Origin: Escherichia coli
Lineage (GTDB): Bacteria; Pseudomonadota; Gammaproteobacteria; Enterobacterales; Enterobacteriaceae
Reading direction: 5' to 3' (one strand)
DNA length: 593 nt
Assembly (NCBI RefSeq): GCF_003334255.1
Contig: NZ_QOWU01000218.1
A program made the translations under genes and the position numbers. Below are positions 1 through 593 of this stretch, in pieces. The notes under the pieces are model-generated. The model was not told the origin of the DNA. It did not search any database and was given only the letters and a program-made list of their open reading frames with translations. Positions within the stretch are counted from its first letter, which is position 1. Every line of letters starts with the position of its first letter.

Positions 1-4
1 GCAT
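1..4 (-). CDS. Rz1: Start of embedded Rz1-type outer-membrane lipoprotein spanin (o-spanin); only the ATG at 4..2 and one further base are inside the window
   Basis: ATG at 4..2 on the minus strand is in the +1 frame of Rz, 220 nt downstream of the Rz ATG and inside the Rz codons for ELADA. This is the same offset and motif at which lambda Rz1 initiates. A GAGGG ribosome-binding site lies 9 nt upstream (18..14), and the +1 frame has a TAG stop at 10..8 immediately before it. The lipoprotein signal and lipobox cannot be seen because they lie beyond the window. Confidence 0.5.
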
Positions 5-224
5 CGGCTAATTCCCTCGAGTATTTTGCATCGAGCGCAGCAACATCGCGCTGGCGCACCTGCATATCAGTAATGGTGGCGTTTGCCAGCTCCAGCTCTC
101 TGGCTTTTTTATCGCGCTGCGCTTTGTAGGTGATGGCGTTATCGCGGTAATGGTCTGTTGCCAGCCACAGCGCACCACAGCCACCCGCCAGGACAATAAT
201 CACCACACACAGAACACGGCTCAT
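1..224 (-). CDS. Rz: Rz-type inner-membrane spanin (i-spanin), N-terminal 74 codons; partial, the 3' end of the gene runs past position 1
   Basis: Reverse-complement translation from ATG at 224..222 gives [74 protein letters not shown] with no stop to the window edge. It has an N-terminal hydrophobic signal-anchor segment followed by a charged segment that matches, from memory, the phage lambda Rz N-terminal region ([51 protein letters not shown]) nearly residue for residue. Not in the supplied ORF track because it is open-ended. Confidence 0.9.
14..18 (-). promoter_or_regulatory. Shine-Dalgarno ribosome-binding site (GAGGG) for the embedded Rz1 start
   Basis: Plus-strand ccctc at 14..18 is GAGGG on the minus strand, 9 nt upstream of ATG 4..2. 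From memory, lambda has AAGGAG at the equivalent position upstream of Rz1. Confidence 0.4.
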
Positions 225-231
225 CTCTCTT

Positions 232-363
232 TCACCCCACCAGTCCCGATAACGTCAGGACTCGCCAGGCGGTGGAAAAGAAAATGGCAACCAGCATTAG
301 TGAAAATGAAATGCCGACAATTACACAGAGGATCTTCGCCAGCGTTATGAGTTTGTCTGACAT
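232..363 (-). CDS. Hypothetical 43-aa small membrane protein (one predicted transmembrane helix), translationally coupled to Rz
   Basis: ATG at 363..361 is preceded by AAGGGAGG (378..371) with a 7-nt spacer. Translation is [43 protein letters not shown], then TGA at 234..232, which is 7 nt before the Rz ATG. A hydrophobic stretch of about 22 residues ([24 protein letters not shown]) fits a single membrane helix. The track's longer version (start 453) begins with GTG directly after a stop, has a Gly/Cys-rich N-terminus and lacks a ribosome-binding site. Confidence 0.5.
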
Positions 364-370
364 GCTTAAT

Positions 371-378
371 CCTCCCTT
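371..378 (-). promoter_or_regulatory. Shine-Dalgarno ribosome-binding site (AAGGGAGG) for the 43-aa ORF; overlaps the TGA stop of the upstream ORF
   Basis: Plus-strand cctccctt at 371..378 is AAGGGAGG on the minus strand, a near-perfect complement to the 16S rRNA 3' end, 7 nt upstream of ATG 363..361. Confidence 0.6.
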
Positions 379-560
379 CACGATTTCAACGCAATGACCA
401 GTTTTGCCAGCCCATACAGCATCGGGGACACAGCAACACCGACCGCCACCCACTTAATGGCAAAAGCCAGTGCTCTGCTGATGTCATCAGTTACAGGCGC
501 TTTCAGTTCAAGGCCATTTTTCATAGTCAACCTCAACAGAATTCGTTTATACTTTTCCAT
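378..560 (-). CDS. Hypothetical small tail-anchored membrane protein (60 aa if ATG 560; 48 aa if ATG 524); 5' end unresolved because the frame is open to the window end at 593
   Basis: Frame translates MEKYKRILLRLTMKNGLELKAPVTDDISRALAFAIKWVAVGVAVSPMLYGLAKLVIALKS, then TGA at 380..378. ATG at 560..558 is preceded by AGGGAG (569..564, short 3-nt spacer); the alternative ATG at 524..522 is preceded by GAGG (534..531, 6-nt spacer). The N-terminal part is charged (K/R/E/D) and the C-terminal 25-30 residues are hydrophobic. The stop abuts the ribosome-binding site of the next ORF. Confidence 0.45.
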   Translation of the reverse strand: MEKYKRILLRLTMKNGLELKAPVTDDISRALAFAIKWVAVGVAVSPMLYGLAKLVIALKS

Positions 561-593
561 GTTCTCCCTTGCCTTATCCAAGGTCAGAAACAC

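Follow-up and report, generated by a model that had tools for sequence, protein, structure and literature searches.

A small phage gene predicted to encode a 60-residue membrane protein and to travel with its upstream hairpin as a moron-like late-operon cassette

The window analyzed here, a 593-nucleotide (nt) stretch of an Escherichia coli contig (NZ_QOWU01000218.1), corresponds, in reverse complement, to a section of a lambdoid lysis region and is matched at 100% by phage PhiR12_3 (PV340552.1) and by E. coli G1/2. We refer to the PhiR12_3 region, in phage orientation, as locus L001; the window corresponds to L001 6001-6593. Our subject is ORF1, an open reading frame (ORF) for 60 amino acids (aa) on the minus strand of the window (378..560; ATG 560..558, TGA 380..378), which ends at L001 6216. 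A terminator-like hairpin (AAAACCCCGTTTGTTGGCTGCAAGCGGGGTTTT; L001 5968-6000) lies directly outside the window, at what would be positions 594-626, and is followed on the minus strand by a GTG at the window edge (591..593), a predicted leader stem (567..583) and the Shine-Dalgarno (SD) sequence AAGGGAG of ATG 560 (564..570), which is kept in E. coli copies with a short leader. Upstream of the hairpin, L001 encodes a class II holin (5124-5339) and lysozyme R with a hydrophobic N-terminal segment (5344-5877), separated from the hairpin by a 90-nt spacer. Downstream of ORF1 are ORF2, a 43-aa protein with a single transmembrane (TM) segment (232..363, minus strand; L001 6231-6362) that belongs to PHROG 4906, a family with no assigned function, and Rz, a lambda-type i-spanin. 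ORF2 has a strong SD (AAGGGAGGA; 378..370, minus strand). Rz is cut by the window edge, so that only its N-terminal 74 codons are included (1..224, minus strand); in L001 it spans 6370-6837 as a 155-aa ORF with an embedded Rz1-like frame and is annotated in the records as endopeptidase Rz or lysis protein.

The first-pass annotation, which was made from the window alone, described the frame as open from the edge (GTG 593..591) to TGA 380..378, as we verified, and considered that it might be the C-terminus of a larger protein starting beyond the window. The open edge is the sole point in favor of that idea. Extending the sequence beyond position 593, as had been suggested, closes the frame: an in-frame TGA occurs at L001 5956-5958 in the identical phage record, 45 nt 5' of the edge GTG and just before the conserved terminator hairpin. 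Because of this stop, ORF1 is not the tail of a larger protein. The lysozyme gene stops at L001 5877, 124 nt upstream of the window edge and in another frame, with the hairpin in between. The same picture holds in all 97 ORF1 copies sampled in the retrieved loci, where no more than 42 codons separate a conserved Tyr4 from the closest in-frame stop upstream, and no long homologues were found beyond read-through or fusion artefacts. We therefore give the larger-protein alternative virtually no weight; on this comparative evidence ORF1 is a complete small gene with its own translation start.

An exhaustive profile search of 1.84 billion representatives returned only 27 ORF1-family clusters at 50% identity. 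All matches are small proteins, except for one of 5,994 aa that matches profile positions 25-48 in four stretches and that we suspect to be a composition artefact. Several database proteins (P0094, P0099, P0100, P0119, and P0021) fuse parts of neighboring genes, joining the ORF2 N-terminus to the ORF1 C-terminus, joining the holin N-terminus to the ORF1 C-terminus, or reading through from a frameshifted ORF1 into ORF2. These point to frequent rearrangement at the ORF1 locus, or to assembly or annotation artefacts. The chimeric P0119 also raised the idea that the ORF1 helix derives from the second transmembrane domain (TMD2) of a pinholin, which is ruled out by an hhalign probability of 0.5%.

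The start of ORF1 is called inconsistently: the product is given as 48 aa in GenBank, 60 aa in RefSeq, and 71 aa in many sources, and a related copy in E. coli Sakai (ECs_1094) is annotated as 37 aa. Two ATG codons, each with an SD-like motif, had been proposed as starts of a 60- or a 48-aa protein, and both motifs are present: AAGGGAG (570..564) before ATG 560, and GAGG (534..531) with a 6-nt spacer before ATG 524..522, the codon of Met13 (522..534, minus strand). Comparison among lineages favors the 60-aa form as the main product and leaves the 48-aa form only as a possible second one. Every lineage has ATG or GTG at the codon of ATG 560 or at its neighbor, and the leaders in front are unrelated. 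E. coli copies have ATG at codon 1; Salmonella and Sakai prophage Sp4 have GTG at exactly this codon behind a different leader, which carries a 25-nt insertion with its own SD (GGGAGGT) and an 8-codon leader ORF; the 60%-identical copies in L086 and L088 also have GTG at codon 1; and Klebsiella and Serratia copies have a GTG start one codon later. In locus L095, an in-frame TAG occurs two codons before the ORF1 ATG. The 71-aa form, which would begin at the edge GTG, was rejected: that GTG is a non-start codon within the U-rich tail that immediately follows the terminator hairpin, it lacks an SD and is not conserved, the L095 TAG lies between it and the ATG, and the upstream sequence in Salmonella is unrelated.

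Translation from ATG 524 alone, with the upstream in-frame codons serving as untranslated leader, agrees with the GenBank annotation of PhiR12_3, with the Sakai call at the equivalent Met of ECs_1094, and with the choice of many gene callers. Met13 is invariant in all subtypes, including remote members with "...RISMNAG..." and "...WNMKDG...", and GAGG is retained in 14 of 15 unique sequences by means of an AGG arginine codon. However, codons 3-12 show selection at the protein level, with synonymous but almost no non-synonymous change, and the pattern Y-K/R-K/R...L/F-R-L is retained even in remote members; the codon-1 start with its own SD is maintained behind three unrelated leaders; and GAGG is lost in O157:H7. 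A product from ATG 524 alone is thus very unlikely. Compared with the ~60%-identical homologues, codons 3-18 have accumulated five synonymous changes and one non-synonymous change, and the non-synonymous divergence (pN) versus L001/L089 is at most 0.03 in these codons and 0.32-0.37 in the remainder of the gene. Because the start is conserved across leaders and change in codons 3-18 is almost exclusively synonymous, the N-terminal 12 residues are, as judged from the alignments, translated and the most constrained part of the protein. The comparative data thus place the main start at ATG 560. Since Met13 and GAGG are both conserved, a second, 48-aa isoform that starts at ATG 524 and lacks the N-terminal helix is possible.

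The 60-aa product (MEKYKRILLRLTMKNGLELKAPVTDDISRALAFAIKWVAVGVAVSPMLYGLAKLVIALKS) has a net charge of +6. Its N-terminus is cationic and amphipathic (hydrophobic moment 0.71, residues 1-11), and its C-terminal part is hydrophobic (best 19-residue Kyte-Doolittle window 1.88, residues 38-56), which bears out the original description of a charged N-region followed by a C-terminal hydrophobic helix. An AlphaFold model places helices at residues 2-14 and 24-59, with a mean pLDDT (predicted local distance difference test) of only 65.5. A tail-anchor layout fits the hydropathy, the positive-inside charge, and the modeled helices, with two lysines falling within the hydrophobic helix.

A profile search with the complete protein, which had also been recommended, assigns ORF1 to PHROG 1115 (E = 1.4e-42; residues 1-60 on profile positions 8-67), the only catalogued family that it matches as a direct sequence member over the full 60 aa. 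The seven additional upstream residues in the 67-column profile are not conserved coding sequence by our comparison. ORF1 also matches the related phrog_4493 and phrog_3246, and all three PHROGs are catalogued without a function. Pfam contains no match to ORF1 even at E ≤ 10 and none to nine family members at E ≤ 0.1; NCBIfam and the PADLOC collection of defense systems likewise give no match, and no solved-structure relative was found in the PDB. The family is a narrow one of Enterobacterales phages: homologues come only from Escherichia, Salmonella, Klebsiella, and Serratia and are always named "hypothetical" or "membrane protein". Subtypes diverge chiefly in the hydrophobic helix and in the ending, which is either ...ALKS or ...IRWW. 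Pairwise ratios of non-synonymous to synonymous divergence (dN/dS), where computable among E. coli, Salmonella, and homologues down to ~60% identity, are 0.08-0.22. By this measure ORF1 is under purifying selection and is more than a chance open frame.

ORF1 belongs to a unit of ~250-300 bp that consists of the G+C-rich hairpin, a leader of 33-85 nt, and the ORF itself. In the inspected lineages the hairpin is flanked by A-runs upstream and T-runs downstream and so resembles a terminator in either direction. Its consensus stem has ten pairs, nine of them invariant and the tenth occurring as U-G, G-C, A-U, or U-A; the inner stems are lineage specific yet self-complementary, with one covarying pair. 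The hairpin accompanies ORF1 in almost all contexts, and the DNA on its upstream side is unrelated from one context to the next. The leader stem, recovered by folding and alignment (CCUUG, 583..579, with CAAGG, 571..567), partly occludes the ORF1 SD and is conserved without covariation. We found no sense-strand promoter-like site between the hairpin and ORF1 in any lineage scanned, nor 5' of ORF1 in any lysis-cassette locus scanned; in the Serratia locus L107 there is one weak site (9/12), upstream of an extra hairpin. A downstream terminator of ORF1 was not found.

Copies with a long leader contain the 8-codon leader ORF (MCREVCSL or MGREVLSL; L089/L092 at about 2985-3010, and L105, the Sakai Sp4 locus, at 5292-5266 on the minus strand), which starts from a conserved SD. 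Its TGA overlaps the ORF1 GTG (GTGA), an arrangement that suggests translational coupling. In L088 and L177, a 17-codon out-of-frame leader ORF occurs instead.

The hairpin-ORF1 module is present at 80% coverage or more in 1,041 of 5,426 complete E. coli genomes (about one in five), including O157:H7; among 50,697 deposited phage genomes, only 14 contain it. Most copies are located between endolysin and spanin genes. In these lysis cassettes the gene 5' of ORF1 encodes an endolysin of one of several unrelated types (PF00959, GH19, GH108, or phrog_873) or the antirepressor Ant, and the gene 3' of it encodes a spanin (PF03245, phrog_214, or phrog_312) or a small lipoprotein. Other copies occur elsewhere: in Klebsiella (L106), Serratia (L107), and L120 the unit separates a baseplate V-like gene from a W/gp25-like one, and in L112 it sits between a gene for a major tail protein and tail genes. 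Relatives without ORF1 exist for the same junction, as Stx1a phages and Sakai prophages Sp9, Sp11, and Sp12 have the order R-Ant-ORF2-Rz. The GC content of ORF1 is 47%, compared with 54% for R and 56% for Rz, a modest difference over only 183 nt. Because the unit occurs at unrelated late-operon junctions, is absent in relatives, and is slightly AT-richer than its neighbors, the hairpin, leader, and ORF1 appear from these comparisons to form a moron-like mobile late-operon cassette and not a fixed component of the lysis cassette.

The occurrence of two tiny TM ORFs in succession before a spanin gene had been called non-standard. No paper describing the arrangement was found, which agrees with that statement, but in genomes it is common, with the order ORF1, ORF2, Rz in 72 of the 97 sampled copies. 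ORF2 remains linked to Rz in the Stx1a phages and Sakai prophages in which Ant replaces ORF1 (Sakai copies ECs_5722, ECs_5730, and ECs_5732); because this linkage persists in the absence of ORF1, ORF2 is a separate unit. No homology between ORF1 and ORF2 was detected. Two plus-strand open frames in the window, at 150-350 (66 aa) and 272-397 (41 aa), are antisense to ORF2 and ORF1; both are unsupported and probably due to chance.

The slot from the hairpin to Rz holds variable sets of tiny membrane ORFs. In L098 it contains a single 45-aa ORF of the FSKLIRE type (1841-2016; phrog_6632), to which ORF1 has no detectable homology, and in L100 (1452-2015) it contains four ORFs in tandem: one of the FSKLIRE type, one of the ORF2 type, an N-terminally truncated ORF1, and a 28-aa ORF (AFAIR...IRWW). 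The IRWW-type ORFs (L086, L088, L098, L100, L105, and L106) end in RWW-stop codons, CGN TGG TGG TGA, located 1-4 nt before the next ATG. These codons look like the SD of the following gene (GGTGGTGA), which would explain the conserved ending. In some GH108-type cassettes (L177, ~3170-3352; L086/L088), the gene after ORF1 is not Rz and instead encodes a 60-aa protein with a lipobox (MKRKHWTH...LLVGC...; phrog_7528, no assigned function), which might be an outer-membrane lysis component.

Based on the position and features of the unit, we propose that ORF1 encodes a late-expressed, membrane-active accessory protein, carried on a mobile cassette and made mainly as the 60-aa form; we put the probability of this overall account at roughly 0.4. 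Given the upstream terminator and the lack of a consistent sense promoter, we infer that ORF1 is transcribed by read-through of late transcription, which in this lambdoid phage would be Q-antiterminated, and the upstream terminator would hold the gene silent in the lysogen. Post-translational insertion would occur through the C-terminal helix, so that the N-terminal helix, cationic and amphipathic, would remain on the cytoplasmic side. Late in infection the protein may then work at the inner membrane in an accessory capacity, perturbing or tuning its integrity or energization and hence the timing of lysis. The 48-aa isoform from Met13 may also be made.

Several observations weigh against this account. 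A strong upstream terminator would have polar effects where ORF1 sits among baseplate or tail genes, in phages that may not use antitermination, so the read-through model may not hold everywhere. The presence of ORF1 outside lysis cassettes weakens a lysis-specific role. Lys36 and Lys53 fall within the hydrophobic helix, which leaves a classical transmembrane span uncertain, and the confidence of the AlphaFold model is low. In the O157:H7 copy, the arginine codon before Met13 is AGA, and the GAGG of the shorter isoform is lost. Finally, searches of the literature by peptide string, accession, or locus tag, and of Sakai ribosome-profiling supplements by coordinate, did not find ORF1, and the literature yielded no experiment or publication on its expression, topology, or function.

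ORF1 could instead be an inner-membrane protein made in the lysogen, serving in lysogenic conversion or superinfection exclusion. It would protect the lysogen, for instance by blocking the entry of DNA from other phages, an activity described for the HK97 moron gp15. Such a role would fit the presence/absence polymorphism, the mobility among unrelated late-operon sites including tail modules, the slightly deviant GC content, and the very high prevalence in prophages (1,041/5,426 genomes) as opposed to the rarity in deposited phages (14/50,697). However, the interval from the hairpin to ORF1 lacks a consistent sense promoter, the terminator immediately upstream would block transcription entering in the lysogen, ORF1 is tightly spaced with or coupled to downstream late genes, and PADLOC gives no match. 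We consider this role rather improbable.

A further alternative is that ORF1 is a small toxic membrane peptide guarded, as in type I toxin-antitoxin (TA) systems, by a cis-antisense RNA of ~75-115 nt. The RNA would start from a promoter in codons 3-13, run across the start codon, SD, and leader, and stop at the bidirectional hairpin; it would block leaky translation in the lysogen and be out-titrated by late transcription. The site in question (TAGTCA 524-529, an 18-nt spacer, and TATACT 548-553; 524..553, plus strand), a hypothetical promoter directed toward the hairpin, is the only sigma-70-like site in the L001 region and the sole promoter-like site in most scanned regions. A version with the constant 18-nt spacer is present in every lineage. 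It matches the consensus at 10-11 of 12 positions with a perfect TATAAT in L088, L106, L107, L112, L120, and L177, reaching TTGTCA-18-TATAAT (11/12) in L088 and L177 and 10/12 in several others. The A-runs upstream and T-runs downstream of the hairpin are as expected for a bidirectional terminator, and the predicted RNA has a fold (z = -3.4) with a 5' stem-loop, a terminator, and a U-tail. Moreover, a 60-aa cationic hydrophobic protein (Kyte-Doolittle 1.88, charge +6) would be of the kind expected for a small toxin, the leader mini-ORF with its GTGA overlap occurs in Salmonella and Sp4, and codons 3-18 show 5-7-fold less synonymous divergence between E. coli and Salmonella than the remaining codons do.

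The controls do not bear this reading out. Among random synonymous encodings of the same peptide, 26-41% yield such a site, and only the improved versions of the site are mildly unusual (p about 0.02-0.05); conservation at third-codon positions is no higher within the putative hexamers than in the spacer. No promoter for the toxin itself was found in the lineages scanned, Rfam contains no family for the RNA apart from sub-threshold terminator look-alikes, and neither Pfam, including any type I toxin families there, nor NCBIfam matches the protein. The reduced synonymous divergence (pS) fades in comparison with distant lineages; it could result from a recombination breakpoint or from an internal translation-initiation region. 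Because neither the recoding control nor the site-specific entropy test gave support, we retain the antisense idea as an unlikely rival and not as the lead, and regard the unproven promoter as largely a by-product of the peptide sequence. In its fullest form the idea makes the whole unit a self-contained, hitherto unrecognized mobile antisense-guarded membrane toxin, a two-isoform cationic tail-anchored peptide with a cis-antisense RNA that ends at the shared hairpin, which we consider a speculative and improbable combination. If it were true, such toxins would insert into the late operons of unrelated temperate phages (lambdoid, P2-like, other myoviruses, and siphoviruses) and would set or sharpen host killing and lysis timing, including in Stx-type prophages.

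None of the published prophage small RNAs (sRNAs) of enterohemorrhagic and enteropathogenic E. coli maps to the ORF1 element, and at the Sakai Sp4 copy no Hfq-bound sRNA is reported (no EcOnc peak). Two sets of candidates were rejected: the Pas sRNAs map upstream of the holin gene, and EcOnc10 and EcOnc12 map downstream of Rz in prophages without ORF1. A 2026 preprint places the prophage sRNAs PasA, PasC, and PasD within the interval between the esterase-side genes and the holin gene. In L001, this interval contains a second strong terminator-like hairpin (5057-5085; AGGGCCATCAGT...ACTGATGGCCTTTTTTT). The Hfq-bound candidates of Sakai are located in Sp9 (1779522-1779569), Sp10 (EcOnc11; 1946819-1946867), and Sp12 (2234239-2234287), and EcOnc10, EcOnc11, and EcOnc12 have near-identical scores. 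EcOnc12 and EcOnc10 are just 3' of Rz, beside or within a small gene on the opposite strand (ECs_1788 and ECs_2255).

ORF1 is ordinary in kind, an uncharacterized accessory small membrane protein of phages already catalogued as a PHROG, but it stands out for its unusually wide distribution, its mis-annotation, and the distinctive mobile unit that carries it. The analysis yields a corrected gene model, 60 aa from ATG 560, and the definition of the mobile unit as hairpin, leader, and ORF, together with a short list of testable functions for an abundant phage small protein. ORF1 is found within the lysis cassette of Stx-type lambdoid prophages, in which lysis timing is expected to influence the release of phage and toxin. 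Because these cassettes carry ORF1, any effect it has on membrane integrity or on timing could matter to the biology of the pathogen.

ORF1 had initially been likened to a holin with its layout inverted, a framing that does not survive comparison: it has no holin match in Pfam, shows no profile similarity to the adjacent class II holin (hhalign probability 0.5%), and also occurs in baseplate and tail clusters, at a distance from any holin. Holins have at least one transmembrane domain followed by a highly charged cytoplasmic C-terminal tail and are obligately linked to an endolysin, whereas the hydrophobic helix of ORF1 forms the very end of the protein, with just K-S or RWW after it and the charge in the N-terminal part, and the baseplate and tail copies have no endolysin nearby. 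The dual-start holins (lambda S107/S105 and phage 21 S71/S68) resemble ORF1 in being small membrane proteins of lysis cassettes with two in-frame starts preceded by SD sequences, the longer form carrying additional N-terminal positive charge. ORF1 differs from them in lacking sequence or profile similarity, in having a single C-terminal hydrophobic helix without a charged C-terminal tail, in the spacing of its starts (12 codons instead of 2-3), and in its occurrence outside lysis cassettes.

ORF1 is not a spanin either, as it has no N-terminal transmembrane domain, no lipobox, and essentially no periplasmic residues, and no spanin family is among its PHROG matches. By description only, it can be likened to the phiKT gp28 "disruptin" and the Mu gp25 "releasin", small cationic or membrane proteins encoded beside endolysin and spanin genes; however, canonical spanins and several endolysin families adjoin ORF1, so neither role is obviously needed. 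With type I TA systems that have a 5'-overlapping antisense RNA, such as symE/symR and hok/mok/sok, the ORF1 unit shares a small hydrophobic cationic protein, a candidate antisense promoter in the first codons, and a terminator at the point where such an RNA would stop, and the leader ORF of some lineages recalls the leader-ORF coupling of hok/mok/sok. It differs in that the putative antisense RNA is unsupported by controls, there is no toxin promoter, and there is no homology to known toxins.

The remaining comparison is with Hendrix-type phage morons, such as HK97 gp15 and lambda bor and lom. In classic morons a promoter precedes the gene and a terminator follows it; ORF1, in contrast, has its terminator upstream and no evident sense promoter, and autonomous expression in the lysogen is unsupported. 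In other respects ORF1 resembles them: morons, too, are small accessory genes, present or absent at a given junction and found at several unrelated late-operon junctions, with membrane proteins as products and a slightly deviant GC content, of which ORF1 shows only a modest degree. For ORF1, the junctions are R-[ORF1]-ORF2-Rz, as compared with R-Ant-ORF2-Rz, V-[ORF1]-W, and major tail-[ORF1]-tail genes.

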